A program made the translations under genes and the position numbers. The notes beneath the pieces are model-generated. The model did not search any database. It saw nothing but the letters and a program-made list of their open reading frames with translations, and had not been told where the DNA came from. This document shows positions 8,369-52,487 of a stretch of 64,000 nucleotides of DNA, piece after piece (within the stretch, counting starts at the first letter, position 1; each line of letters opens with the position of its first letter). The DNA is from Clostridia bacterium. GTDB lineage: Bacteria > Bacillota > Clostridia > UBA1381 > UBA9506. The stretch lies in contig JAZNRE010000005.1 in assembly GCA_045590535.1 (NCBI GenBank), positions 8,485-72,484 of the forward strand, given 5' to 3'.

Positions 8369-9974
8369 TTTTTATAGCATTTACAATTTCTTCAGCATAG
8401 GCTCGGCACTGCTCTTCATTGTCACTTTCAATCATCACGCGGATAACTGGTTCGGTGCCGCTGGGACGCAAAAGCGCTCTGCCGCAACCGTTAATCTGTC
8501 TTTCTACTTTAGCCAGCGCCTCTAAAACGGCAGCATCGGCCAAAACGGCTTCTTTATCTTTCACCCGTACATTTTGCATGTATTGGGGATATAGGGTGAT
8601 GTCCTGCTTAAGCTTTGAAAGAGAAAGCTTAGAATCGCAAATTTCTTCCATGAGCATAATGGCCGTCAAAATGCCATCACCTGTTGTGGCATATTTTTTC
8701 AAAATAACATGACCGGATTGTTCTCCGCCCAAAGCATAATCATTTTCCTGCATACATTCATAAACAAATCGGTCGCCCACCGCCGTTTGCTCACAGAAAA
8801 TTCCCAAAGCCGCAAGGCTTGACAAAAGGCCGCTGTTGGTCATGACCGTGCCCACCACCTTGTTATGATTCAGCATGCCACGGCTTTTTAGTCTTTTGCC
8901 TAAAATGTAGAGCATCATGTCTCCATCCACGATGTTGCCGTTTTCATCAACAGCAATGCAACGGTCAGCGTCGCCGTCAAAGGCAAAGCCAACATCCAGA
9001 TGCTGCTCTTTCACTAATCGGCAAAGATTTTCTATGTGTGTTGAGCCACAACCTTTGTTGATGTTTAAGCCGTTTGGTTCAGCCCCAATCACCACCGTTT
9101 GTGCCCCCAGGGCATCAAACACCGATTTTGCAATCATCCAGGCGGCGCCGTTGGCACAATCAAGGCCCACCCGCATCGTTTTGTAAGAATGTGAAGCCAA
9201 CGAAATGAGATAACCCACATAGCGATTTCGACCGGAAACATAATCCACAATACAGCCGATTTTTTCCCGGTTTGCAAGAGGCAGGTCGCCACTGTCAAAG
9301 CCCAGGGCTTTCATATTGCCGTCTAAATAAGCTTCAACATAGGCCGTTGTGTCATCATCCAGTTTTTCGCCATAGCGGTTAATGATTTTAATGCCGTTGT
9401 CATAATAAGAATTGTGCGAAGCGGTTATCATAATACCACAATCAAACTCTTCCTGCCGGGTCACATAGGAAACACTGGGGGTTGTGGTTACATGTAGCAT
9501 ATAAGCATCGGCACCCGAGGCGGTAATCCCTGCTACTATGGAATATTCCAGCATATAGCTTGAGCGTCTTGTGTCTTTACCAATCACAATGCGAGGGCGA
9601 TAGCCCACCTTGGTGCAACCAGCCAGCGATGAGCCATAATACCAGCCCAAAAACCGCCCAACCTGATAGGCCTGATAAGAGGTCAGGCTCACATTTGCCT
9701 CACCGCGAAAGCCATCTGTACCAAAATATTTATTGGATGTCTCATTTGCTTTTTGTTCTTTTTGCAGGGATATCTCGTCGTGCAAAAGCTCATCCGTTGT
9801 CACATCAAATAAACTGCAAAGCTGCAGCACCTTATCAATTTGCGGCATAGCCTGATTCATTTCCCACTTTGAAACTGATTGTCTTGAAACTGACACCTTT
9901 TCTGCCAGCTGCTCTTGGGAAAGCCCCGCCAAAGTGCGCAGCTTTAAAATCTTTTCCCCGATTGTCATAACCAA
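8346..9974 (-). CDS. glmM: XRE-family HTH domain fused to phosphoglucosamine mutase
   Basis: The first ~65 aa, IGEKILKLRTLAGLSQEQLAEKVSVSRQSVSKWEMNQAMPQIDKVLQLCSLFDVTTDELL, form a Cro/C1-type HTH. The rest is GlmM-like: active-site TASHNSYYDNGIK, DGDADRCIAVD and GGEQSGH. Confidence 0.8.
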   Translation of the reverse strand: MVMTIGEKILKLRTLAGLSQEQLAEKVSVSRQSVSKWEMNQAMPQIDKVLQLCSLFDVTTDELLHDEISLQKEQKANETSNKYFGTDGFRGEANVSLTSYQAYQVGRFLGWYYGSSLAGCTKVGYRPRIVIGKDTRRSSYMLEYSIVAGITASGADAYMLHVTTTPSVSYVTRQEEFDCGIMITASHNSYYDNGIKIINRYGEKLDDDTTAYVEAYLDGNMKALGFDSGDLPLANREKIGCIVDYVSGRNRYVGYLISLASHSYKTMRVGLDCANGAAWMIAKSVFDALGAQTVVIGAEPNGLNINKGCGSTHIENLCRLVKEQHLDVGFAFDGDADRCIAVDENGNIVDGDMMLYILGKRLKSRGMLNHNKVVGTVMTNSGLLSSLAALGIFCEQTAVGDRFVYECMQENDYALGGEQSGHVILKKYATTGDGILTAIMLMEEICDSKLSLSKLKQDITLYPQYMQNVRVKDKEAVLADAAVLEALAKVERQINGCGRALLRPSGTEPVIRVMIESDNEEQCRAYAEEIVNAIKNGGHTVD

Positions 9975-10147
9975 CGCTCACTCCTTACTGGATTTACAAA
10001 TTAAAGTCATTTTTACTCTTTCTTGCACTCATGTATTACATCATATCAACTGAAACAGAGGGATGCAAGCAACTTCGGTTGGTTTTTAAAAGCAACTGCA
10101 GGTTGCATTTTTTATAAATAGAAAAGTATTTTTCTTAATTTTTAATT

Positions 10148-10176
10148 ATTGTACCATATAATTTTTGTTTTTGCAA
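10148..10176 (-). promoter_or_regulatory. Sigma-A type promoter of the HTH-glmM operon (TTGCAA-N17-TACAAT)
   Basis: The reverse complement reads TTGCAA aaacaaaaattatatgg TACAAT, leaving about 165 nt of 5' UTR before the 9974 start. Confidence 0.45.
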
Positions 10177-10184
10177 ATTACACT

Positions 10185-10198
10185 TGTCAAATTTGACA
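10185..10198. promoter_or_regulatory. Perfect 14-bp palindrome TGTCAAATTTGACA, candidate operator
   Basis: A 7+7 perfect inverted repeat lies 8 nt upstream of the -35 of the HTH-glmM promoter. Confidence 0.35.
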
Positions 10199-10224
10199 GG
10201 TTTCACCCGAAAGACTTTTTTGGC

Positions 10225-10263
10225 TAAAAAGAATTGCAGCAAAGCATAAACCCGGCTGCAATT
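10225..10263 (-). terminator. Probable terminator of the M42 peptidase operon
   Basis: AATTGCAGC-N14-GCTGCAATT hairpin. On the minus strand it is followed by CTTTTTA. Confidence 0.45.
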
Positions 10264-10295
10264 TCTCTATGGTAATTTTTTTGTTGTCGTTTTTG

Positions 10296-11285
10296 TTAAA
10301 TACCTTCTTCAATTAACGCCTTGGTTAAAGCAACCACCTGCTCTAAATCCTTACGGCACAGCATTTCGCCCGGGGTGTGCACATAGCGCAGGGGAATGGA
10401 AATGCAGCCCGAGGGAACGCCGCCCCCTGTTAAATGAATGGCACCTGCATCGGTGCCGCCTCTTTCAAGTACCTCCGCCTGCCATAAAATGTTATGCTCT
10501 TTGCACAGGTTTTGCAGGCGTTCTTTAATGATGGGATGTGCCAGCATGGAGCTGTCCATAATTTTAATAGCCGCACCACCACCTAAACGAACCGACATTT
10601 TCGGTCCGCAGGCTGCATCACCGGTTCTTGTAACATCCAGCGCCACGGCATAATCCGGCTTTACGGTTTCAGCAACGGCTTTGGCACCCCGCAAGCCCAA
10701 CTCTTCACTAACGGTGAAAACGGCATAAATATCCTGCTTATTTGTCTCGGCTTCCCGAAGCGCCTGAATCAACGCATAGCAACCGGCGCGGTTATCCAGT
10801 GCCTTTGAAATCACGGTGTCACCCTGTTCGCAATAGGCGCCAACAAAAGCAGCCCCTTCGCCCAAGGCCACACGGGCTGACGCTTCTTCTGCATCTTTAG
10901 CGCCAATATCTACATAGAGCCTAGACAGCTTTAAATCCTTAAGCAACTCTGCTTCCTGGCCGTCCGGCACCAGCACACCCTCAGCACCGTTTTCAAACCG
11001 AACACGCTGATAAAGAGCCGTGTGAGGAAAAACACCGCCCAAAGCCGAAACATAAATCTGCCCCTTTTCGCCATAACAGGTGGCAACCAGACCGATCTCA
11101 TCCATATGGGCACAGAGCATCAGCTTTGTGCCGTCACCCTTTTTATGCACAATTAAGTTGCCTAAGGCGTCTTGCCACACCTCGTCGGCACAGGACTCAA
11201 TTTCCTTTTTTATCAAGGATGCTAAATTCCCTTCACAGCCGGAAGGGGCATTGGCATCACAAAGTGTTTTGAGCAAAGTCAACAT
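10296..11285 (-). CDS. M42 family metallopeptidase (TET/FrvX/YsdC-like aminopeptidase), paralog 3
   Basis: CAHMDEIGL, ALDNRAG, VSEELGLRGA and RYVHTP motifs. Confidence 0.85.
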   Translation of the reverse strand: MLTLLKTLCDANAPSGCEGNLASLIKKEIESCADEVWQDALGNLIVHKKGDGTKLMLCAHMDEIGLVATCYGEKGQIYVSALGGVFPHTALYQRVRFENGAEGVLVPDGQEAELLKDLKLSRLYVDIGAKDAEEASARVALGEGAAFVGAYCEQGDTVISKALDNRAGCYALIQALREAETNKQDIYAVFTVSEELGLRGAKAVAETVKPDYAVALDVTRTGDAACGPKMSVRLGGGAAIKIMDSSMLAHPIIKERLQNLCKEHNILWQAEVLERGGTDAGAIHLTGGGVPSGCISIPLRYVHTPGEMLCRKDLEQVVALTKALIEEGI

Positions 11286-38512: not shown

Positions 38513-40591
38513 ATGTATAGAACCCTATATTGCAATGACATACGCGATGAGCACATTGGCAAAACCGTTCAGCTCGCCGGCTGGGTGGATGTTGTGCGTG
38601 ACCATGGCGGTGTTATTTTTATTGACCTTCGTGATTACACCGGCGTAACACAGGTAGTCATTCATAATGAAGAACTTGTGAAGGATGTAAACCGTGAAAC
38701 CGTCATCTCTGTCAGCGGTATTGTCAGCAAGCGTGACCCCGAAACCGTGAATGACAAAATTGAAACCGGCGCCGTGGAGCTGGTGGCTGACAGCCTTGAC
38801 ATTTTAGGCAAAAGCTTAAACAAGCTTCCTTTTGATGTCCGTGCTTCCCGCTCAAGCAAAGATGAGTTGCGCCTTAAATATCGCTATTTAGATTTGCGCA
38901 ATCCCAAAAACCACGATAATTTGGTAAAACGCTCACAGATTATCCGCCATTTGAGAAACAAGATGGAAGAAAAAGGCTTTTTGGATATGCAAACGCCTAT
39001 CTTAACAGCCTCTTCTCCGGAAGGTGCCAGAGACTTTTTGGTGCCCAGCCGTAAGCATCCCGGCAAGTTTTATGCACTGCCCCAGGCACCCCAGCAGTTT
39101 AAACAGCTTTTAATGGTGTCCGGCTTTGACCGTTATTTTCAGGTAGCGCCTTGCTTCCGTGATGAAGACGCCCGCGCTGACCGTTCACCCGGTGAGTTCT
39201 ATCAGTTAGACTTTGAAATGGCTTTTGCCACGCAAGAAGAAGTTTTGGATGTGTGCGAAGATGTAATCTACGACACCTTCAAAACCTTCTCGGATAAACG
39301 AATTACGCCGAAGCCCTTCCGTCGCATCACCTATGCGGATGCCATGATGACCTACGGCTCGGATAAACCCGATTTAAGAAACCCCTTAATCATCTGCGAT
39401 TTAACCGCCTTCTTTGAAGGGGTTGACTTCCCTGCCTTTAAGGGCAAGCCCGTCCGCGGTATTGTTGCTGGCTGTCAGGGCAAATCCAAGAAGTTCTTTG
39501 AAGATTCATTAAAATATGCCACCTCCCCCGAGGTTGGTCTTGGCGGTCTTGGATATATCACTTTAAAAGACGGCGCCTTTGCAGGCCCCATTGCCAAATT
39601 CTTAAGCGATGCACAAAAAGAAGAAATCACCACCCTGACCGGTGTGAAAGAGGGCGAAACCCTGTTCTTCATTTGCGACGACACCAAGAACGACACCGAG
39701 AAAAAAGCCGGCTTAATCCGTACCTGGCTGGCCAAAAAAGAACAGCTTGATTTAATTGATGAAGATGCTTTTGAATTCTGCTTCGTTGTGGACTTCCCCA
39801 TGTTTGAAAACGATGAGGAAACCGGTGAAACCATCTTCACTCATAACCCCTTCTCCATGCCCCAGGGCGGTATGGAAGCTTTGCTCACCAAAGACCCAAC
39901 CGAAGTGCTTGCATATCAGTATGACCTGGTAGGCAACGGCATTGAGCTTGCCTCCGGTGCTGTTCGTAACCACGATATTGACATTATGAAAAAGGCCTTT
40001 GAAATTGCAGGCTATCCTGAAGAGGAACTGAAAAAGCGGTTTAACGCTTTATACACTGCATTTCAGTATGGTGCTCCACCCCATGCCGGTATGGCGCCGG
40101 GCATTGACCGTATGGTAATGCTCTTAACTGACGAAGAAAAGATTTTAGATGTTATTGCTTTCCCCTTAAACGGCAACGCCCAGGACCTGCTTTTAGGCGC
40201 ACCCAGCTTTGTAACCAATCAGCAGCTTGAGGATGTTCACCTCTTAGGAAGCACCAATGTATTGGCGCAGCGTGCCGCCGGACCGGCCAGCGCAGCCAAA
40301 ACCTCGGCTGGCAAGCGTTCCACCTTCTCCAATGCACAGCAGCTGAATCAGATTGCTTTAACTGAAGAGGAAGAAAAGGTTGTGCAGGATATTTTTGGTG
40401 CCATGAATGAGCAGGAAAAAGCGCTGGACGAAATCAGCACCGAGGGTGTTGAACCCATGGTGCATGTCATGCCCATGACCAATGTTCTGCGTGAAGATGT
40501 CCGCCGTCAGCCTTTCTCCCGTGAGAGTCTCTTAGAGGGTGCTCCGGAACGCAGTGAAGATAGCTGGCAAGTGCCAAGACTTGTAAAGTGA
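38513..40591 (+). CDS. aspS: Aspartyl-tRNA synthetase (bacterial type, with GAD insertion) fused to a C-terminal GatC domain
   Basis: The AspRS core has QSPQ-equivalent LPQAPQQFKQLLM, FRDEDARADR, the GAD insert, and GIDRMVML. After a ~30-aa Ala/Ser/Lys-rich linker, the last ~85 aa (ALTEEEEKVVQDIF...GVEPMVHVMPMTNVLREDV...LLEGAPERSEDSWQVPRLV) match GatC end to end. No separate gatC lies upstream of gatA. Confidence 0.85.
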   Translation: MYRTLYCNDIRDEHIGKTVQLAGWVDVVRDHGGVIFIDLRDYTGVTQVVIHNEELVKDVNRETVISVSGIVSKRDPETVNDKIETGAVELVADSLDILGKSLNKLPFDVRASRSSKDELRLKYRYLDLRNPKNHDNLVKRSQIIRHLRNKMEEKGFLDMQTPILTASSPEGARDFLVPSRKHPGKFYALPQAPQQFKQLLMVSGFDRYFQVAPCFRDEDARADRSPGEFYQLDFEMAFATQEEVLDVCEDVIYDTFKTFSDKRITPKPFRRITYADAMMTYGSDKPDLRNPLIICDLTAFFEGVDFPAFKGKPVRGIVAGCQGKSKKFFEDSLKYATSPEVGLGGLGYITLKDGAFAGPIAKFLSDAQKEEITTLTGVKEGETLFFICDDTKNDTEKKAGLIRTWLAKKEQLDLIDEDAFEFCFVVDFPMFENDEETGETIFTHNPFSMPQGGMEALLTKDPTEVLAYQYDLVGNGIELASGAVRNHDIDIMKKAFEIAGYPEEELKKRFNALYTAFQYGAPPHAGMAPGIDRMVMLLTDEEKILDVIAFPLNGNAQDLLLGAPSFVTNQQLEDVHLLGSTNVLAQRAAGPASAAKTSAGKRSTFSNAQQLNQIALTEEEEKVVQDIFGAMNEQEKALDEISTEGVEPMVHVMPMTNVLREDVRRQPFSRESLLEGAPERSEDSWQVPRLVK

Positions 40592-40601
40592 GGTGCCAAG
40601 A

Positions 40602-41780
40602 ATGAATCATTATAAAACAAAAATCGGTAGCGGCAACATCGCCGTTGACGATACCATTTTAGTAAAAGATATTGAAGCTTGTGCCGGTTCTAAAATGCTC
40701 ACCGGCTTTAAGCCTCTCTTTAGTGCAGAAGCCGTAACCCGCCTGGAAGCCAAGGGCTACAAAATCGCCGGCAAAACCAATGTGGGCGAATTTGGCCTTG
40801 ACCTTTTGGGTGAGTTCTCCTATGGTGCAGAAAGCGAAGGCACATTAAAAGGTGCGGCTGCAGACCTGGTGGCAAGTGGCGAAGTGAAAGCGGCTTTGGC
40901 TGTGGATATGAACGGAACAGCAAGACGCGCGGCTGCCATCTCCGGTATTGACTTTTTAAAACCGACATATGGCACAGTTTCCCGCTATGGCGTCATTTCC
41001 TGTGCCGCTTCCGGTGAACAAATCGGCGTTTATGCTAAAGATGCCTCCGGTGTTCAGGAAATTATGAATGTGATCGCCGGTCACGACGAAAAAGACGGCA
41101 CCAGCTTAAAGAACGAAAGCTATGATTACAGTTTTCAGCCTGTTTCCGGCAAAAAAGTTGCCATTATAAAGGAACTTTTAGAAAAAGCTGATGACGAAAC
41201 CAAAAAACGCGTGAGTGTTTATGCTGATGCACTTCGTGCAAAAGGCGTAACGGTTGAAGAAATTTCCTTTAATCTCTTTGACGCCGCCAATGTTGCCTGG
41301 CAGATTTTAATGACCGCTGAAACCTGCAATAACATCTCCCGTTATGACGGCGTGAAGTTTGGTCATCGTGCTAAGGAATATAAAAACATTGACGAATTGT
41401 ATGTTAATTCCAGAACCGAAGGCTTTAACTTCTTAACCAAGGCGGTTATTCTGTATGGCTCTGATGTGCTTTCGAAAAACCGTTATGAAGCCTGCTATGA
41501 TAAATCCTTAAAGGTCCGCCGTGTGATTGCTGAAAAATTCCAAGAGTTAATGGCAAATTATGATGCGATTTTAACCCCGGCGGCAAGCAAAATCACTTAC
41601 GAAGCCTACGACATTCACGAAGCCTTCAAAAAGGTGTTTGAAGAAAGCGTTTTCACCGCACTGGCTAACTTAATCGGCACATCGGCTTTAGTTTCCGGCG
41701 GTGTGCAGCTTATGGGTAAGCATTTTTCAGAGAGTTTGTTATTAAGCCTTGCAGACGCTGCTAAAAAGGAGGGCAAATAA
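40602..41780 (+). CDS. gatA: GatA-like amidase-family protein, short and with a degenerate amidase signature
   Basis: It is colinear with GatA (ILVKD..., GKTNVGEF, LKPTYGTVSRYG, SRYDGVKFGHR, SRTEGFN). It lacks the canonical N-terminal segment of several tens of residues. It carries TLKGAAAD in place of GGSSGGS and AVDMNGTARR in place of GSDTGGSIRQ. Confidence 0.7.
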   Translation: MNHYKTKIGSGNIAVDDTILVKDIEACAGSKMLTGFKPLFSAEAVTRLEAKGYKIAGKTNVGEFGLDLLGEFSYGAESEGTLKGAAADLVASGEVKAALAVDMNGTARRAAAISGIDFLKPTYGTVSRYGVISCAASGEQIGVYAKDASGVQEIMNVIAGHDEKDGTSLKNESYDYSFQPVSGKKVAIIKELLEKADDETKKRVSVYADALRAKGVTVEEISFNLFDAANVAWQILMTAETCNNISRYDGVKFGHRAKEYKNIDELYVNSRTEGFNFLTKAVILYGSDVLSKNRYEACYDKSLKVRRVIAEKFQELMANYDAILTPAASKITYEAYDIHEAFKKVFEESVFTALANLIGTSALVSGGVQLMGKHFSESLLLSLADAAKKEGK

Positions 41781-41782
41781 TC

Positions 41783-43201
41783 ATGAATTATGAATTGGTC
41801 ATCGGCCTTGAGACCCATGTGGAGCTCAACACCGAATCAAAAATATTCTGTTCCTGCGGTGGTCACTCAGCCGCCAAAGAACCCAATGACTGTGTATGCC
41901 CTGCCTGCAGCGGCATGCCCGGTATGCTCCCTGTGATGAACAAACATGTTGTGGAGCTGGCTGTTACAGCAGGACTCATGTTAAACTGCGACATTAACCG
42001 TTACACCACCTTTGACAAAAAGAATTACTACTACCCTGACCTGCCCTGTGCTTATCAGATTACACAGCTCAACCATCCCATTTGCACCAACGGCTGTGTG
42101 ACCTTAAAAACCTCGGCCGGCACCCGTGACATCCGCATTAAGCAGATCCACATGGAAGAAGATGCAGGCAAATTGGTGCACGGCGGTAAATACTCTTATG
42201 TTGACTTTAACCGCACCAGCGTGCCCTTGATTGAAATTGTTACCCAGCCTGACTTTAGAAGTGCTGAAGAGGTGGTAACCTACTTAAACAAGCTGAAATC
42301 CATGTTCCGTTCCGGCGGTATTTCAGAATGTGAAGAGGGTGCTATGCGCTGCGATGTTAACATCTCCGTTCGTCCTGAAGACAGCGAAGAATTCGGTGTG
42401 CGTACCGAAATTAAAAACATGAGCTCCTTTGAAGCCATTGAAAAGGCCATCCGCTATGAAGCACAGCGCCATATGGACGCTTTGGAATTTGACACCGAAG
42501 AACTGGTGCAGGAAACCCGCCGTTTTGATGATGCCAGCGGCAAAACCTTTGCCATGCGTAACAAAGAAACCGAGGCGGATTACCGCTACTTCCCCGATGC
42601 TAACTTAATGCCCATCATCATTGATGACGAGTGGCTGGAGGAAATTAAGGCGAACAAACCTGCTGCTGTGGATGAAAAGGCTGAAGATTATCGCCTGGCA
42701 GGCATTTCGGATAAAGAAATCGACATGCTCATCTCCAACCACAAAATCAGCAAGCTACTCGATGATATTGTGGCTATGGGTGCTAATGCCAAAGATGGTG
42801 CTGCATGGATTTTAACCGACTGTGCCGGTATTTTGCGCAAAGATGGCAAAACCTTGAATGATTTAGTTATCACCGCTGAAAAGCTCTATGCTGTCATTCA
42901 AATGGTGGATAATGGCGACATCAACCGCAACGCCGGCAAAAAGATACTCATTGCTGTGGTTGAACAAGATGTTGACCCCATTGCTTATTGCAAAGAGCAG
43001 GGGCTTGACAAAAAGTTTGATACTTCTGCCATCAGCGCTGTGGTCGATAAGGCCATTGCCGAAAATCCCCAGTCTGTAGAGGACTTTAAAAATGGTAAGG
43101 TTAAGGCATTGCAAGCTCTCTTTGGTGCTTGTATGAAAGAATTAAAAGGCGCCGGCGACCCCGCCGTTATCAAAACCTTGTTGGAAGAGAAATTGAAGTA
43201 A
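41783..43201 (+). CDS. gatB: Asp-tRNA(Asn)/Glu-tRNA(Gln) amidotransferase subunit B
   Basis: ELVIGLETHVELNTESKIFC, DKKNYYYPDLP, MEEDAGK, DFNRTSVPLIEIV, and a C-terminal YqeY-like tail. Confidence 0.95.
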   Translation: MNYELVIGLETHVELNTESKIFCSCGGHSAAKEPNDCVCPACSGMPGMLPVMNKHVVELAVTAGLMLNCDINRYTTFDKKNYYYPDLPCAYQITQLNHPICTNGCVTLKTSAGTRDIRIKQIHMEEDAGKLVHGGKYSYVDFNRTSVPLIEIVTQPDFRSAEEVVTYLNKLKSMFRSGGISECEEGAMRCDVNISVRPEDSEEFGVRTEIKNMSSFEAIEKAIRYEAQRHMDALEFDTEELVQETRRFDDASGKTFAMRNKETEADYRYFPDANLMPIIIDDEWLEEIKANKPAAVDEKAEDYRLAGISDKEIDMLISNHKISKLLDDIVAMGANAKDGAAWILTDCAGILRKDGKTLNDLVITAEKLYAVIQMVDNGDINRNAGKKILIAVVEQDVDPIAYCKEQGLDKKFDTSAISAVVDKAIAENPQSVEDFKNGKVKALQALFGACMKELKGAGDPAVIKTLLEEKLK

Positions 43202-43216
43202 GAATTAAAGCAAAAG

Positions 43217-43249
43217 AAACCGCAGAAAACAAAATGTTTTCTGCGGTTT
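43217..43249. terminator. Bidirectional intrinsic terminator (gatB / GH172 gene)
   Basis: AAACCGCAGAAAAC-AAAAT-GTTTTCTGCGGTTT followed by TTATT. Confidence 0.75.
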
Positions 43250-43332: not shown

Positions 43333-44415
43333 TTATATGATTTCCAGCTCGTCTTCTGTTGGGAACGGGGGGAAGGTTTTGCAAATTGTGTCCTGATACC
43401 AGAATGCCACAGACGAAATGTCATCCTGCAGTGGCAGGTAACGGCGTTTATCCCGCCAGCCAAGTGCTTGAATTGTTACCTTTAAATCTTCTTTAAAGTA
43501 AATCGGGTCCTGAATATGCCAACGGTACATGGAGAAACGATGCTGTGACACATACAGGCCGTTGGGACGGATGATTTTAGGCACGCCGGAATAGGGGGTG
43601 CAAAATTCCTGATATTTTCCTCCGATGTCAAAATTCCACGAGCCGCAGAAATAATCCTCTGTGCCTGTGCCGCAAATGGTGGGAAATTCTTTGTCGCCGT
43701 CTAAATAAAATTTAATTTCGCCCTCACCCCACCAGCGACAGTTGTTAAGACCCCAGAACATGTAGGTTCCCACGTAATGACCATTACCGCTGACGTTGTC
43801 CAAAATAGTATAAACATCCTTATAGGGCAGGGGGTTAACCCGTCTGAACTGGGCATGGAAATAGGCCATGCCCTCAGGAAGCTCTGTGAGGATATAATCA
43901 ATCTGATAATAAACCGTGATTTCTTCATTAAAGATGTTTTCAAGGGTTATTTTGCAGTTTTTATAAAAAGGCATGTCCCAGTAACAGTTAAAGGCTCGTT
44001 TGGGATTAACGCAAACAGGCAAGGATGTCACCTGGGCATATTCCTGACAATCGGCGCAGGCAAAAAAATCACCCAAGGGCGCTTCTACTGAGGGAGTGTC
44101 GCTACCATCCCAATACATCCTGAGAATCAGCTTGCGATTGGTGGGACAGTTTTCGGTAATCCAGATATGTTTGATAATACCCGAACCGTTAATTTCACCC
44201 ATGGTAAAGGTTTCACCGGGTGCAACAACAACGCTGGGGGATATTTTCCAGCCCTGACCCAAATCACGGGCACAGGCCTTGCCGGTGCCCTCGGTCGCCA
44301 TGCCGCCTTTTCCTTTTTCACCTGTAAAGTTTTCAGGTGAAATGGAACGGCTCACCGCTTTTGATGTGCGGGCAATGGAAGAAAGAACAGTTTCATAGTT
44401 ATTCATTTTATTCAT
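43333..44415 (-). CDS. DUF2961 / glycoside hydrolase family 172 protein
   Basis: 360 aa. GSGIIKHIWIT, LRMYWDG...PSVEAPLGDFF, YFHAQFRR, WWGEGEIKFYLDGD and GTGTEDYF follow the DUF2961 pattern as I remember it. No signal peptide is present. Confidence 0.7.
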   Translation of the reverse strand: MNKMNNYETVLSSIARTSKAVSRSISPENFTGEKGKGGMATEGTGKACARDLGQGWKISPSVVVAPGETFTMGEINGSGIIKHIWITENCPTNRKLILRMYWDGSDTPSVEAPLGDFFACADCQEYAQVTSLPVCVNPKRAFNCYWDMPFYKNCKITLENIFNEEITVYYQIDYILTELPEGMAYFHAQFRRVNPLPYKDVYTILDNVSGNGHYVGTYMFWGLNNCRWWGEGEIKFYLDGDKEFPTICGTGTEDYFCGSWNFDIGGKYQEFCTPYSGVPKIIRPNGLYVSQHRFSMYRWHIQDPIYFKEDLKVTIQALGWRDKRRYLPLQDDISSVAFWYQDTICKTFPPFPTEDELEII

Positions 44416-44418
44416 CTC

Positions 44419-46053
44419 CTACTTCTTTAGCTTTATATTTCGCATAATATTGTTTTTTGCAAAAAAATCAGATACGTTTAAATATTCCTTGTATAAAATC
44501 TGATATTTTTTATGATTCTCATCATTGGGATAGTACACCTTTTCGCTTTTATCGGCTATAACAGCAGCAGCATCGAAGACATTGTCAAAATATCCGCCGG
44601 CTACCGATGCAAAAATGGCACTGCCCTTGGCACCCGCCTGGGTGCTGGCTGCAATTTTAATGGGACAGCCCAGAACATCGGCATAAACCTGCATCATAAA
44701 AGCATTTTTTTGCGAAATGCCACCGGCTGCATAAATCTCAGATACCCTAATGCCGTTTTGGTTATAAAGGTCGATGATGGCTTTTGTTCCAAAGGCTGTG
44801 GACTCAATGATCGCCCTGAAAATCTCTTCCGGCTTTGTTCTTAAATTAAGACCGATAATGGTGCCTGTTAAATCATAATTGGCATAGGGTGTGCGGTTGC
44901 CGTTCCACCAATCAAGAGCCAAAATGCCACTTTCACCAACAGAGAGTCTTTCTGCCTTTTGGGTGATGTAATCAAAAATATTTTGGTTTTTAGCCTTTGC
45001 TTCTTCTGCATAAGCTGACGGCACGCAGTTTTTGACAAACCAATCAAAGCTGTCACCAACGCAGGCCTGCCCTGCTTCATAGGCAACAAGACCGGGGATG
45101 ATACCATCTTGCACACGTCCGCAGATGCCTCTAACCTCTTTATCTTCATGGCTCATGACAATGTGGCAGCTGGATGTGCCTGCGATAATCATAAGTCTTC
45201 CATCATTCACAATGCCTGCTGCAGGAAGTGCCGCATGGGCATCAATAATCGGAACAGCCACCGCCGTTCCCTCGCAAAGGCCCGAAAGCTCTGCACCCTT
45301 CTTGCTGATTGTGCCCGCTTTGGTGCCGGTGGGCTTTACCTCTTCTGATATCTTTGTGCCAATAACATCTCCAAAACCTGCATCAACCTTTGACCAGAAT
45401 GCATTGGAGGGATATCCTGTGTCTTTGCTCCACAAGGCCTTATAGCCCGCCATGCAGCTGCTACGGACTTCTTCTCCTGTGAGCTGCCAGACGAGCCAGT
45501 CGCCTGCCTCTAAAAAGCAGTCGCATTCATTATAAACTGCAGGGGATTTATGCATGGTTTCCAAAAGTTTTGGAAACAGCCATTCAGATGACACCTTGCC
45601 GCCATAAGCCTCTAGCCATGCTTCGCCGGAACTAAGAGCTGCCTTTGTGATGGCTTCTGCCTCCGGCTCGGCGCTGTGGTGCTTCCACAGCTTTACATAG
45701 CTCTGGGGCTCATTTTTAAATTTTTCAAAAAAACAAAGGGGTGTTCCATCTGCCTTCACCGGCAAAGCTGTGCAGGAGGTAAAATCAATACCCACACCCA
45801 CAACCTGCTCAGGCAAGATTCCTGACTCTTTTAAAACGGATTTTACTGTACCGGAAAAAACATCAAGATAATCCTGGGGGTGCTGAAATGCATCCGTTTT
45901 TAAAAGATGAATGCCTGTAAAGTCTTTGTCTGTCATCACTGCATGGGGATAAACAAATTCACTTTCGGCAAGCTCTTTTCCCGTTTCCAAGTCAATAAGC
46001 AGTGCTCTTGCTGAAAGTGTGCCGTAATCGATGCCGATTGAATATTTTTTCAT
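44419..46053 (-). CDS. araB: FGGY-family ribulokinase (AraB type)
   Basis: YSIGIDYGTLSARALLIDLETGKE closely resembles AraB N-termini. The ~545-aa length is typical of ribulokinase rather than fuculokinase or xylulokinase. The ATG lies after AAAGGA, and the upstream part of the track ORF lacks an RBS. Confidence 0.8.
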   Translation of the reverse strand: MKKYSIGIDYGTLSARALLIDLETGKELAESEFVYPHAVMTDKDFTGIHLLKTDAFQHPQDYLDVFSGTVKSVLKESGILPEQVVGVGIDFTSCTALPVKADGTPLCFFEKFKNEPQSYVKLWKHHSAEPEAEAITKAALSSGEAWLEAYGGKVSSEWLFPKLLETMHKSPAVYNECDCFLEAGDWLVWQLTGEEVRSSCMAGYKALWSKDTGYPSNAFWSKVDAGFGDVIGTKISEEVKPTGTKAGTISKKGAELSGLCEGTAVAVPIIDAHAALPAAGIVNDGRLMIIAGTSSCHIVMSHEDKEVRGICGRVQDGIIPGLVAYEAGQACVGDSFDWFVKNCVPSAYAEEAKAKNQNIFDYITQKAERLSVGESGILALDWWNGNRTPYANYDLTGTIIGLNLRTKPEEIFRAIIESTAFGTKAIIDLYNQNGIRVSEIYAAGGISQKNAFMMQVYADVLGCPIKIAASTQAGAKGSAIFASVAGGYFDNVFDAAAVIADKSEKVYYPNDENHKKYQILYKEYLNVSDFFAKNNIMRNIKLKK

Positions 46054-46127
46054 ATCATTTGATCCTTTCGGATTTCTTTTGTGCCCTCGGGCATTGCTTG
46101 CCCGGGGCACCCCGTTTTAATCTTTCA

Positions 46128-47930
46128 TTATCTTATGTTTCTATACAGAGGGCCATAAGCATCGCAAGCCCGATAGTCCTGCCCCTCTTTATCCATGCCA
46201 AAAGCGTTCCAGCTTGCCGGACGGAAGATTTTTTCTTCGCTTACATTGTGCATGCAGACAGGAATGCGGAGCATGGAGCAAAGAGTGATCACATCAGCAC
46301 CAATGTGACCATAGCTGATGGAGCCGTGATTTGCACCCCAGTTATTCATAACATCATAAGCTGTTTTAAAGGCACCCTCGCCGGTAACACGTGGTGCAAA
46401 CCAGGTGCAGGGCCATGTGTAATCGGTTCGCTTCCAAAGTTTGTCAGAAACCTCTTCAGGCAATGAAACAGTCCAACCCTCTGCAATTTGCATAACGGGA
46501 CCAAGACCTTTCACAAAGTTAAGACGAATCATGGTTGCCGGCATTTCGGCACGGGTTTCAAAGCGCGAAGAATAGCCACCGCCTCTGAAATAGCCCAGAT
46601 CTGCAGCATTCCAGGTGGTTGCAGATAGGCAAGCTTTTTGGTCTTTTTCTGTCATCTCCCAGAAGGGTTTAATCACAGCATTGCCTGCATCGTCTCGAGC
46701 CTCGCCGCAGGCATCAAGGCAGGCAGCACCTGAATTAATGAGATGGATAAATCCGCCTGCTTCCTTTGCTTTGCCCACAAGGTCATAGCCTGTTGCCTTT
46801 TTAACAGCCTCGGGGCTCCAATAGGTTCTCACATCGGCAAAAATCTGTGCCGTGTTTGTTAAGAGCTTTCCAAAAAGCATGCAAACGCCGTTTAATGTAT
46901 CGTTTTCTGTTGCTAAAATGTAAGGCTCACGGGCGCCATTCCAGTCAAAAGAGGTGTTAAGCATGGATTCAGCAAAGTCACCATTGGGATAAAAGTCGGT
47001 CCATTGTCTTTGTCCCTGAAAACCGGCTGCTATGGCATTGTGACCAACCATTTCTTCCTCACAGCCCTTGGGAAGATTGGAATTGCCGTTCATTAAATCC
47101 TTAATGATGCACATGGTCTTCACAACAAATTCCCATTCTTCTTCTTTCTTTTCAGGAGATTTTTGCAACTCGGGCGGATTTTTATCAAAGCCCTCGGGGC
47201 AGTTTTCTTTTGTCCATTTAAGAGCCTTTTCAAACTCTTCCTTGTCGTAAATGCCCTCTGCCATTCTGCGCAGAATTTCCACTTCGTCAACTGATTCTAC
47301 CCGCATACCTAGGTAGTCCTCAAAAAATTCCGTATTAATGATAGATCCGGCAATACCCATGCAAATGGAACCAATTTGCAAATAGGATTTGCCCCGCATG
47401 GTGGCGACTGCAACAGCCGAGCGGGCAAAGGCAAGAATTTTTGCCTGAACATCAGCAGGAATGGTGGTGTCATCTGCTTCGCAAACATCGTGACCGTAAA
47501 TACCAAAGGCCGGCAGACCCTTTTGGGCATGAGATGCCAAAACCGATGCAAGATAAACCGCACCCGGTCTTTCTGTGCCGTTAAAGCCCCAAACGGCTTT
47601 AATGGTCATGGGGTCCATATCCATGGTCTCTGAGCCATAGCACCAGCAAGGTGTTACCGTGAGGGTGATAGCCACGTTTTCTCTTTTAAATTTAGCCTCG
47701 CAGGCCGCTGCCTCTGCCACGCGACCTATGGTTGAATCGGCAATGATAACTTTTACGGCCTCACCGTTTGAATATTTTAAATTTTTTGTGATTAACTCTG
47801 CCGCAGCTTTTGCCATGTTCATGGTTTGGTCTTCAAGAGATTCCCTGACTTTTAAAGGGCCTCTTCTTCCGTCTATAGTGGGACGGATACCAATTACGGG
47901 ATATTCCCCAATATATCTGTTTTTACCCAT
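46128..47930 (-). CDS. fucI: L-fucose isomerase family protein (L-fucose/D-arabinose isomerase)
   Basis: 600 aa. [29 protein letters not shown] and the overall length match FucI. It is not the ~500-aa AraA type. Confidence 0.8.
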
Positions 47931-48039
47931 TATATTTTCCTCCCCAATTTAGTTGGTAATATAATTATATACTTGCGTTTTCCCTAATACTTGTGTTATA
48001 ATAACAAAAAGTATAACTATTTCCATATCGAGGTGTAAT

Positions 48040-48891
48040 ATGGCTTATAACGAACTAGAGCAAAGAGGAACCTCTGATTTTCCTGTGGAATTTTTCCACA
48101 TTGATGAGCATCATCCCCGCTATCACATGTCTGCCCATTGGCACAGCGAAATTGAGCTGATTAAGGTGCTTGAGGGGCATCTGGAAATTAAGCTTAACAA
48201 CAATGAATATCTTGCAAAACCGGGTGATATTGTTTTTATTAATTCAGAAACGCTCCACCAGGCAATTCCTCATGCATGCACCTATGAATGCATTGTTTTT
48301 CACATTAACTTTTTGTATAATGACACTTTAAGCTGCCGCTATTTCATTGAAAGTATTTTAAGCGGCGAAAACATTGTGAATGAATTTAACCCCCTTGCAA
48401 ATGATGAATTTCATAAAGTGGCAGGTGACGTGTTTCACCATTTAAACAGCCATTCCTCAGGGTATAAATTCAGAACCATAGCCGCCTTTTATATGCTTTT
48501 AGGGGTGATTGCAGATGAGCACATGTATCATTCAACCGTGAGCGACAAAACCTTTGATGTGGACAAAAACATTGTTAAGCTTAAAAAAGTCCTTTCATTT
48601 ATGCGCGAGAACTACAATAAAAGCATCACCTTAGAAGACATGGCCAAAACGGCTGGCATTTCTTTTAAATATTTTGGCACCTTCTTTAAGAATATGACCC
48701 GAAAAACGCCGGTTGATTATCTCATTGAATACCGTATTGAAAAAGCCTCCCGAAAGCTTTTAAACACCGACATGAGCGTGACGGACATTGCCTATTCCTG
48801 CGGTTTTAATGACCTGAGCTACTTCATTAAAACCTTTAAAAGAATCAACAAAATTTCTCCGGGAAAATACAGAGAAAAACAGCCGGAATAA
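48040..48891 (+). CDS. AraC family transcriptional regulator (cupin sensor plus dual HTH)
   Basis: N-terminal cupin (HWHSEIELIKVLEG). The C-terminal HTH_18 region includes ITLEDMAKTAGISFKYF and VTDIAYSCGFNDLSYFIKTFKR. It is divergent from the sugar genes. Confidence 0.85.
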   Translation: MAYNELEQRGTSDFPVEFFHIDEHHPRYHMSAHWHSEIELIKVLEGHLEIKLNNNEYLAKPGDIVFINSETLHQAIPHACTYECIVFHINFLYNDTLSCRYFIESILSGENIVNEFNPLANDEFHKVAGDVFHHLNSHSSGYKFRTIAAFYMLLGVIADEHMYHSTVSDKTFDVDKNIVKLKKVLSFMRENYNKSITLEDMAKTAGISFKYFGTFFKNMTRKTPVDYLIEYRIEKASRKLLNTDMSVTDIAYSCGFNDLSYFIKTFKRINKISPGKYREKQPE

Positions 48892-49047: not shown

Positions 49048-49106
49048 AATGATGAATCCGAGCCTTATAGTATCCCTTGACCAATACATATGCGGAGGAC
49101 AGCCTT

Positions 49107-49982
49107 GTGGAAATTAAAATCTATGTAGATGTTTTGTTTTTCATCAATCTTCTGTTTAATTATTTGCTGCTTTGGTTCACCGGCCTTCTGCTTCGTCAGT
49201 CTGTTTCCAATGGGCGCCTTTTTGCCTCTGCCTCTTTGGGTGCCCTCTATGCCGTGTGCATCTTTTTTTTGCCAGTAGCCGTGTTTTATGCCCTGCCGGG
49301 AAAGCTTCTCTTTGGCATGCTAATGGTCTTTTTGGCTTTTCGCCCCCATTCTCTTTTGGCATGGCTCAAATGCAGTTGTGTGTTTTTTGCAGCGGTATTT
49401 ATTGTAGGGGGTGCGGCTTTGTGTTTCGTCTTTTTTAGTGGCGAAAAAGCATTACAGGGCATTCTCTATCGTAATGGCGCTCTTTATATGAATCTGCCGA
49501 TTTCTCTTTTGCTTTTTCTGTTTGCTCTTTGCTATAGCATTTTAAAGGTTGCCTTTTCACTAGGCGCCAAAGTGAATGCGGCAGGGAGGCAAACAGTGCC
49601 CCTACTTGTTGTTTTAGGCAACCGTTCTGTGCGGCTGCGGGGCTTTTATGACAGCGGAAACCTATTGCAAGACCGACACGGTCGTGGCGTGATGATAACA
49701 GAAAAAAAGCGGGTTGCCCCGCTTTTTAAAAATCAAGAAAAACTAAAAGCATCCCCGGCCCAATTCCGTTTTAAAACACTAAAGGGTCAGGGAAAACTGC
49801 AGGGCTTTTGGCCCGATGCCATCTATCGTGAAGAGGGACGAAGGTTAATCCCGGTTGCGCCCTGCTATGTGGCCGTCACGGATGAGCCGTTAAATTATTA
49901 TCATAACTGGGACACAATTTTGCCCAACAATTTTGAGGGAGTGGAAAAGAATGAAACGAAAACGCATGAAGCAGTTATTTAA
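49107..49982 (+). CDS. spoIIGA: Sigma-E processing peptidase SpoIIGA
   Basis: N-terminal polytopic region beginning [17 protein letters not shown]. The C-terminal aspartic protease motif is [10 protein letters not shown]. The GTG lies 8 nt after GGAGG. The gene is directly followed by sigE. Confidence 0.85.
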
Positions 49983-50688
49983 CTTTACGGCTTTCAAACA
50001 AACCGCTATTTTCAAATGGATTGTGGGTGGTGATACCCCCGTTTTATACATTGGCGGCAGCCAGGCTTTGCCGGCTCCCCTTTCGTCTGACGAAGAAGCC
50101 GCTCTTTTAGAACAATTAACCTCCGACACACCGGAGGTCAAAAAAACATTGATTGAACGCAATTTAAGGCTTGTGGTGTATGTGGCACGAAAATTTGAAA
50201 ACACCGGAGTTAACATTGAAGATTTAATCTCCATCGGCTCCATTGGTCTGATTAAAGCCATTAACACCTTTGATACGGGAAAGAACATCAAGCTTGCAAC
50301 CTATGCCTCCCGCTGTATCGAAAACGAAATTCTCATGTATCTGCGCAAAAACCATAACATTAAAACCGAGGTATCCATTGATGAGCCTTTAAACACCGAT
50401 TGGGACGGCAACGAGCTGCTCCTGTCCGATGTGCTGGGCACCGATACCGATGAGATTTCCCACCGCATTGAAGAAGAGGTTGACCGCCAGCTTTTATATA
50501 GCGCCATCAATCGCCTTTCTTCAAGAGAGCGACAAATCATGGAACTGCGCTTTGGACTTCGCTCCGGCAACGAAAAAACACAAAAAGAAGTGGCCGACAA
50601 GCTGGGCATTTCCCAGTCTTACATCTCAAGACTGGAAAAGCGCATCATCGGCCGACTTAAAATTGAATTTGCCAAGTTAATGCAGTGA
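49951..50688 (+). CDS. sigE: Sporulation sigma factor SigE (pro-sigma-E)
   Basis: [17 protein letters not shown]...[41 protein letters not shown]...[13 protein letters not shown] is near-canonical SigE. The ATG follows GAGGGAG. Confidence 0.9.
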
Positions 50689-51537
50689 GACAGTTTTAGC
50701 CATGAAGTCTACATATTGGTCAATTACATCAATATCCGTTAAATGGTAGAGCATCCTTGCTCCCACAACATCTTCAATCTCGCCCAGCATGGGCTGACCC
50801 TTTGAATAAAGCAGGTCAATACCGGCAAAGCCCAGTGGTAAATGGTCTGTTATGGTGCGAACAATATGCATCTCTTCCTGGGTCAGTGTTTTTTGTTCGG
50901 CCCTGCCGCCTAAGCAGTAGTTGCTGCGAAAATCATCATCACGCATGCGGAGCATGGCACACACAACCTCACCGCCCACAACATAAACCCGCAAATCGCG
51001 ACCCAAATCGGCAACCGGCTTTTGCAATAAAAAGCTTGCATGAGCATAGCCGGTGAGTTTATCCGCTAAATCCGAGGGGCTTTCAACCCATAAAACATCC
51101 TGGCCCCCATGACCGTCCCGAGGCTTCATCACCAAGGGAAAGCCCAAGTCTATGCCAATTTCCATGGCGCTGTTACGGGTTGCCACACGGGTAACTGGCG
51201 TGGGAATGCCTAAAGAAGCCGCAAACTGCAAGGTTTTCAGCTTATCATTGGCTAAAAGTGACACTCGGGCGCTGTTAAAAAGCCGACAGCCCATGGCCTC
51301 TAAATGTGCCGAAAATATAGGTTCCGTTGCCCGCATAATCACAAAGTCGGGCAATTTTTTTATGTCTTTTTTTGCATAAGACAAATAAAGGCCGTTTTCC
51401 GCCGTGCCCCAAGAAAAATCTTCATAATAGCAAAGTGACATTTGAATGTTTCGTTTTTCGCATGCCTGCCTGTAAAAAGAGATGGCATGGTGATTGCGCT
51501 CTGCTTCCCCGCGGGTGTAAATCAGCCAACAAGTCAT
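50677..51537 (-). CDS. RimK-family ATP-grasp ligase, paralog B
   Basis: [22 protein letters not shown]...[25 protein letters not shown] and GFAGIDLL are colinear with E. coli RimK. Confidence 0.75.
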
Positions 51538-51556
51538 GCCTCTTCACTCCTTTTTA

Positions 51557-52435
51557 TTATTCTTTGTCTATTTGTTGAGCAATGTGCTGTACAATTGCCT
51601 CTGCTGTGTCAATGCCGGTACAATCGAGCAGATTTTTAAAATGGGCGTTTGAATTGATTTCGCACAAAATTGGCTCATCATTTTTACCAAACAAAAGGTC
51701 GACTCCGGCAAAATCAAGCCCCAGAGTCCGGCACGCCTTTATGGCCATTTCTTTTTGGGCTTCTGTGGGGGTGTAGGCCTTCATGCTGCCCCCGGCGGTG
51801 ACATTGGCACGAAAATCGCCTTTTTCATTGTAGCGCAGCATGGCGGCAACCACCCGGTCCCCCACCACCTGCAGGCGCACATCCCGTCCCACACTTTCTT
51901 TCACAAAAGCCTGCATGATAAAGGGTGTGGCACCCAAGGTTTTAACAATTTTCTCTGCCTCTTTTTGCGAATGAGCCAAAAAAACCTGACTGCCAAAGGA
52001 GCCAAAGCAGGCCTTAATCACCATAGGCCAGCCTAACTGCTCCCCTGCTTTTTCAATAAAGGATAGATCTGTGTAACCCACAGCATCATAGGTCATGGGT
52101 GCACAAATGGTATCGGGCATGGGTACTTTTCCCGCCAGTGCCACATGGGTCAGACTTTTATCGTCACACACCATAACCGCATGAGCCGGGTTAAAAAGCC
52201 GCAAACCCATATTTTCCAGCGAAAGAGCCAGGCGAATGTCTTTATCCCAAAACAGGCCAAAATCCGGCAAATTCTCTTTTGAAAAGCCTTTGCCGATGAT
52301 GTGCAAAAGGTCACATCCGCTTTTCATAACGAGGTCAATGCCCTGGTCTTTTGCTGCCTGTTGCAGACGCTCATAAAGCTCTGAAAATTTATTTGTTTTT
52401 AAAAAATGATTCACAATTAACCAGCCGGTTTTCAT
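51557..52435 (-). CDS. RimK-family ATP-grasp ligase, paralog A
   Basis: WPMVIKACFGSFGSQV, MQAFVKESVGRDVRLQVVGDRVV, GDFRANVTAGG and DFAGVDLLF. The ATG lies 4 nt after GGAGAAG. Confidence 0.75.
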   Translation of the reverse strand: MKTGWLIVNHFLKTNKFSELYERLQQAAKDQGIDLVMKSGCDLLHIIGKGFSKENLPDFGLFWDKDIRLALSLENMGLRLFNPAHAVMVCDDKSLTHVALAGKVPMPDTICAPMTYDAVGYTDLSFIEKAGEQLGWPMVIKACFGSFGSQVFLAHSQKEAEKIVKTLGATPFIMQAFVKESVGRDVRLQVVGDRVVAAMLRYNEKGDFRANVTAGGSMKAYTPTEAQKEMAIKACRTLGLDFAGVDLLFGKNDEPILCEINSNAHFKNLLDCTGIDTAEAIVQHIAQQIDKE

Positions 52436-52487
52436 AACACTTCTCCAAATTCTTTTGTTAGTCAAAAATGCTTATTTCATATTTACG

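Follow-up and report, generated by a model that had tools for sequence, protein, structure and literature searches.

The contig JAZNRE010000005.1 of an uncultured gut Clostridia bacterium (GCA_045590535.1) was analyzed over 64,000 nucleotides (nt), referred to here as the window. At positions 43333-48891, it carries genes for a GH172 glycosidase, an AraB-type kinase, a FucI-type isomerase and an AraC-family regulator. This combination raises the question of which sugar the locus serves, and the initial annotation proposed D-arabinofuranoside and D-arabinose catabolism. Our analysis favors, with a probability of roughly 0.8, an AraC-activated D-arabinose salvage operon whose predicted enzymes would convert a D-arabinofuranose (D-Araf) glycoside to D-arabinose, D-ribulose and ultimately D-ribulose-5-phosphate. 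The proposal is thus upheld by the active-site residues of GH172, the genome-wide absence of rival routes, the AraB tree, the co-occurrence of AraB with GH172 and a convergent gene cassette, while the activities of the enzymes stay predictions from sequence.

Three enzymes of a predicted D-arabinose route

Open reading frame (ORF) calls and family hits agreed with the gene content, positions and gaps described initially. The enzyme genes lie on the minus strand in the transcription order fucI, araB and GH172, with gaps of 74 nt and 3 nt, respectively, by ORF coordinates; the first shrinks to 17 nt with a longer AraB ORF starting at a GTG codon at 46110. The AraB start at 46053 is supported because the alignment with B. 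halodurans AraB begins at query residue 2. Pfam domains comprised DUF2961 in GH172, FGGY_N and FGGY_C in AraB, three Fucose_iso domains in FucI, and AraC_binding with HTH_18 in AraC, the latter two being consistent with the reported divergent regulator upstream of the trio. From gatB (end 43201) to a spoIIGA-like gene (start 49077), there were no araA, araD, fucA or transporter genes, confirming that the locus lacks an L-arabinose isomerase (AraA), an AraD (L-ribulose-5-phosphate 4-epimerase), a fuculose-1-phosphate aldolase (FucA) and a transporter.

The DUF2961 domain covers most of the GH172 protein (E 1.4e-93), and the nearest solved relative is the exo-alpha-D-arabinofuranosidase ExoMA1, with a full-length match to 8IC8 (E 1e-131), as compared to E 2e-39 for the difructose dianhydride enzyme alphaFFase1. 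Alignment indicated that the acid/base E231 and the nucleophile E253 are kept, with the same 22-residue spacing as E242 and E264 of Dg67. Furthermore, N261 aligns with Asn253 of ExoMA1, which blocks alpha-D-fructofuranosides and is replaced by Gly in alphaFFase1; ExoMA1 is specific for alpha-D-Araf, with weak alpha-D-fructofuranosidase activity (PMC10509167). Based on this similarity, GH172 would release D-arabinose from alpha-D-arabinofuranosides. Its N-terminus has no hydrophobic stretch that could serve as a signal peptide, and therefore the enzyme is probably cytoplasmic, as is ExoMA1. No record of the exact protein was found in the contig collection searched.

FucI scored 1001 bits against NCBIfam TIGR01089 (cut-off 850), its metal-site motifs are intact, and its nearest solved relative is the D-arabinose isomerase of B. 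pallidus (3A9R, E 4e-261). The FucI family accepts both L-fucose and D-arabinose, and we know of no sequence marker for a preference between the two. The kinase exceeded the cut-offs of the ribulokinase models TIGR01234 (650 bits, cut-off 583) and PRK04123 (677 bits, cut-off 428), matched B. halodurans AraB (PDB 3QDK) with E 1e-168, and fell below the cut-off of the pentulose-kinase model TIGR01315 (212 bits, cut-off 409). E. coli AraB accepts D-ribulose, and AraB enzymes also take pentitols; the kinase of this locus is predicted to act as a D-ribulokinase. Since its sequence alone cannot decide between D- and L-ribulose, rival routes were tested genome-wide.

In the proposed pathway, small alpha-D-arabinofuranosides, most likely pieces of cell wall, or free D-arabinose, a rare sugar, would be taken up by a transporter encoded elsewhere. 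The cytoplasmic GH172, given its likeness to ExoMA1 and its conserved residues, would free D-arabinose, which FucI would isomerize to D-ribulose by a known activity of its family, and the AraB-type kinase would form D-ribulose-5-phosphate. Rpe, RpiB and transketolase (Tkt), all found in the host genome, would carry this product onward.

Rival sugars and the evidence from related genomes

The host assembly (G000, 1.58 Mb) is 91% complete, a scope that applies to all absences reported for this genome. No AraA, second FGGY kinase, second FucI-like isomerase or GH29 was found, and tblastn detected no RhaB/FucK-type kinase or FucA-like aldolase; neither the canonical L-arabinose pathway (AraA with an intact AraD) nor the canonical L-fucose pathway (FucK/RhaB-type kinase with FucA) was encountered. 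Given that Rpe, RpiB and transketolase are present and the rival genes were not found, D-ribulose-5-phosphate has an outlet, in contrast to L-ribulose-5-phosphate and L-fuculose. A sister species (G007), represented by a Clostridia metagenome-assembled genome from water buffalo colon, has the same locus with 88-96% protein identity; this separate 91% assembly again contains one FGGY kinase, one AraD remnant and no FucA-like gene.

The lone class II aldolase of the host is a degenerate AraD homologue on another contig (C28:19726-20391; L088:9727-10392, minus strand), whose score of 171 bits is far below the 389 required by the AraD family model. It has lost N28, K42, S44, G45, S74, S75 and D76, which include the residues of the phosphate site, as well as the tail with Y229, and carries a D120E replacement, while the zinc histidines are kept. 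In AraD, catalysis is reported to rely on the pair Asp120 and Tyr229. An epimerase or aldolase encoded elsewhere, which had been named as evidence that would speak for another route, was represented by this remnant only, with no FucA-like gene detected. The protein is possibly a pseudo-enzyme or has a new activity. In 8/8 aligned genomes of two genera, its gene keeps an intact reading frame and has the same small neighbor, at the place where G023 carries an intact araB-araD. Genomes G001, G004 and G011 show no class II aldolase besides the degenerate AraD.

Among 239 genomes of the order, AraB was present in 23. In the AraB tree, which was quick and unrooted, without bootstrap or a reliable root, the ten araD-adjacent AraBs fall on one side of a branch with a Shimodaira-Hasegawa-like approximate likelihood-ratio (SH-aLRT) support of 99, and the kinase of this locus falls outside. 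An outgroup tried for rooting formed a very long branch, and no order of events is claimed from the unrooted tree. GH172 was found in 7/12 genomes having AraB without an adjacent araD versus 1/11 with one (Fisher p 0.027, a value overstated because the genomes are kin and not independent). AraB adjoins FucI in G074, G077 and L242, and adjoins GH172 in four more loci. In addition, five gut Clostridia genomes (L028, L029, L032, L033 and L036, at about 9070-10650) carry the same type of GH172, followed by a ribokinase and a short, single-domain KpsF/GutQ-like isomerase resembling arabinose-5-phosphate isomerase. A ribokinase and an arabinose-5-phosphate isomerase would likewise take D-arabinose to D-ribulose-5-phosphate. 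Judging by family hits and general knowledge, this cassette would be an alternative two-step D-arabinose route convergent with the locus. At L234:8961-11086 (G182), two tandem GH172 genes encode proteins 62-63% identical to GH172 of the locus, with no adjacent kinase or isomerase.

Besides the quality of the tree and the kinship of the genomes, several points weigh against D-arabinose salvage. A kinase lies beside GH172 in only 10 of 66 close GH172 loci, most of which have just a regulator. Most FucI-bearing relatives are without AraB or GH172, and some hold a fucose set of RhaB-type kinase, aldolase and FucO elsewhere in the genome; for these reasons the araC-fucI pair may respond to L-fucose. 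The genomic absences are not proven, as the assembly is incomplete. Sugar-transport candidates are few genome-wide, and none is linked to the locus. The endo-D-arabinanase GH183 is not in the locus and had no genome match in a search that lacked a positive control; the exo-beta-D-arabinofuranosidase GH116 is absent from the locus, the genome not having been searched for it. The trio had been described as a self-sufficient pathway, which is too strong for a GH172 without a signal peptide and a genome in which neither GH183 nor a dedicated importer was found. The cell probably feeds on what other microbes release, as small fragments or as the free sugar D-arabinose.

It is unlikely that the locus is mainly an L-fucose unit formed by araC and fucI, with araB and GH172 as passengers and the L-fuculose genes missing from the assembly. 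Such a unit would agree with the FucI score above the fucI equivalog cut-off and with the finding that araC-fucI is conserved as a pair, together with its control region, in relatives, some having a RhaB/FucK-type kinase, an aldolase and FucO. However, no FucA-like gene was found in either of two separate assemblies, each of which holds one FGGY kinase, GH29 was not found in the host, and one terminator is common to all three genes. In pentuloses, AraB places the phosphate on the terminal CH2OH, a group that fuculose lacks. We consider an L-arabinose route, in which FucI would act as an L-arabinose isomerase, AraB as an L-ribulokinase and the remote araD-like gene as the finishing step, to be very improbable: the kinase does score above the L-ribulokinase cut-off and an araD homologue does exist, but the latter has lost the residues listed above, AraB lies outside the araD-linked branch, and the specificity of ExoMA1 is towards alpha-D-Araf.

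The breadth of both families leaves a small chance, lower than that of the fucose unit, for another sugar such as L-xylose or a pentitol, derived from an unspecified glycoside. FucI is also reported to act on D-altrose and L-galactose, and AraB acts on pentitols. Nevertheless, L-xylulose-5-phosphate would require epimerases, the only AraD-like protein of the genome is degenerate, no dehydrogenase gene is present in the locus, and among the downstream genes found only D-ribulose-5-phosphate fits. Least probable of all is that GH172 is a difructose-dianhydride or alpha-D-fructofuranoside enzyme unrelated to the pentose genes. Although alphaFFase1 is a GH172 member and weak activity on alpha-D-fructofuranosides is known for ExoMA1, the gate position is Asn and not Gly, ExoMA1 is far closer than alphaFFase1, the GH172 enzymes of D. 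gadei are inactive on difructose dianhydride I, and the locus has no fructokinase.

Control region, transcript signals and neighboring genes

Features of the locus, with positions counted from the first nucleotide of the window
Feature	Position	Strand	Remarks
GH172 (DUF2961), predicted ExoMA1-like exo-alpha-D-arabinofuranosidase	43333..44415	-	360 aa; no signal peptide; residues by alignment
AraB-type FGGY ribulokinase, putative D-ribulokinase	44419..46053	-	544 aa; sole FGGY kinase found in the genome
L-fucose/D-arabinose isomerase, FucI family	46128..47930	-	600 aa; family hits, nearest solved structure 3A9R
AraC-family regulator, cupin sensor and HTH	48040..48891	+	283 aa; paired with fucI in many relatives
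Intrinsic-terminator-like hairpin at the end of the operon	43217..43249	-	15-pair stem followed by T-rich tail; fold z-score -6.8
GC-rich hairpin in the fucI-araB spacer	46081..46110	-	no U tract behind; spacer fold z-score -5.0
Conserved divergent control region, putative	47960..48020		alignment of 13 araC-fucI spacers
TATAAT towards fucI	47964-47969	-	13-spacer alignment
Extended -10 towards araC	47994-48002	+	13-spacer alignment
CAAGTA repeat, two copies 18 bp apart	47970-47975, 47988-47993		13-spacer alignment

The control-region motif occurs once in the genome. A sigma-70 scan returned no excess of promoter-like sites (12 versus 10.3 in shuffled sequences) and missed the conserved -10 boxes. 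FucI is present in 52/61 relatives, often as a lone araC-fucI pair, and the regulator usually seen next to GH172 is another AraC, about 25% identical to AraC of the locus. The araC gene of the locus belongs to the older araC-fucI pair and not to GH172. We infer that the operon is a mosaic, in which a widespread, older araC-fucI unit gained araB and GH172 behind it, in a lineage without the fuculokinase/aldolase branch. Candidate inducers are D-arabinose, L-fucose and the keto forms of these two sugars. Several genomes of the same genus (loci L170, L174, L175 and L180) carry fucI and a RhaB/FucK-type kinase, in three of these loci close to a galactokinase-like gene.

GC content (0.39-0.47) and third-codon-position GC content (GC3; 0.44-0.51) of the four genes are close to those of neighboring genes, giving no sign of a recent island. 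The hairpin closing the operon is probably shared with the convergent gatB. The hairpin in the fucI-araB spacer could possibly be an mRNA stabilizer or a processing site; at the matching position of the sister genome lies a hairpin with another sequence (z -2.3).

Read by eye, window positions 38513-43201 encode an aspartyl-tRNA synthetase (692 aa) with an apparent GatC fusion at its C-terminus, a short GatA (395 aa) seemingly without the usual amidase signature, and GatB. On the other side (49077-52465), also read by eye, spoIIGA-like and sigE-like genes lie directly beyond araC, followed on the opposite strand by two ATP-grasp (RimK-like) genes in tandem.

Larger loci in relatives and comparison with known systems

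In G077 (L229:12385 to L230:15981) and on an independent contig, GH172 heads an array of five large proteins that ends in AraB and FucI. Similar arrays of four to five large proteins were found at L244/L242, L245-L247, L239, L243 and L011; some come after GH172, and others precede a GH38 mannosidase. The large, apparently secreted proteins have signal-peptide-like starts and 750-1420 aa, two with SLH and one with CBM9. For a common module of 776 residues, the fold was predicted confidently, with a local distance difference test score (pLDDT) of 87; its best structure matches are GH39 at 16-17% identity, and it carries NEP and E-x-G-W motifs. A repeated domain of ~310 aa has almost no Pfam hits. 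No GH183 was detected in these larger loci, the GH39-like module has no match in the host genome, and our literature search found no paper linking GH39 with D-arabinofuranose and arabinomannan. The array proteins are candidate new enzymes acting on a D-Araf glycan.

A tentative and rather doubtful extension would make the trio the cytoplasmic core that is left of a gut-clostridial D-arabinofuranose-glycan system, whose full form in relatives comprises GH172, four to five large secreted proteins, AraB and FucI. If true, clan GH-A would contain as yet undescribed enzymes for D-arabinan, or herbivore guts would hold an unrecognized D-Araf glycan, and an AraB lineage would have been re-used as a D-ribulokinase. 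New enzymes are better sought in the larger loci, and the compact three-enzyme set suits testing of the isomerase and kinase steps, which the 2023 papers proposed. The D-arabinose reading would extend this salvage to small-genome gut Clostridia and imply that D-arabinofuranose glycans serve as food in animal guts. It also indicates that the label 'L-ribulokinase' can mislead where araA and araD are missing.

The pathway scheme has already been published for other bacteria, and the locus is a core-only version. Shimokawa et al. (2023; PMC10509167) proposed GH172, an isomerase and a kinase leading to D-ribulose-5-phosphate for the D-arabinan locus of Microbacterium arabinogalactanolyticum. In both loci, a cytoplasmic or probably cytoplasmic ExoMA1-type GH172 is accompanied by a putative isomerase and a putative kinase; in contrast, ours lacks GH183, GH116 and an ATP-binding cassette (ABC) importer, belongs to a gut clostridium, and has a regulator derived from the araC-fucI pair. 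Polysaccharide utilization locus PUL42 of Dysgonomonas gadei likewise combines GH172 with a fucose isomerase, a protein found in abundance when D-arabinan is the growth substrate (Al-Jourani et al. 2023, PMC10115798; bioRxiv 10.64898/2026.08.13.744632), but its GH172 enzymes are periplasmic and number three, with GH183 and TonB-type uptake besides, instead of a single, probably cytoplasmic GH172. The L-arabinose araBAD system (B. halodurans AraB, 3QDK) shares the kinase subfamily, whereas our locus has no AraA, its genome no intact AraD, and its kinase lies outside the araD-linked branch of the order. RbtK-type D-ribulokinases of Klebsiella and E. coli (PMC3245297) catalyze the reaction predicted here and belong to a different subfamily, as the TIGR01315 score indicates. 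FucI is shared with the L-fucose pathway FucI-FucK-FucA, which also processes D-arabinose via ribulose-1-phosphate (PMC3637100); because FucK and FucA were not found in the genome, phosphorylation would instead take place at C5, without aldol cleavage. In its predicted working, the locus resembles the cytoplasmic end of a D-arabinan locus and is not a full one.

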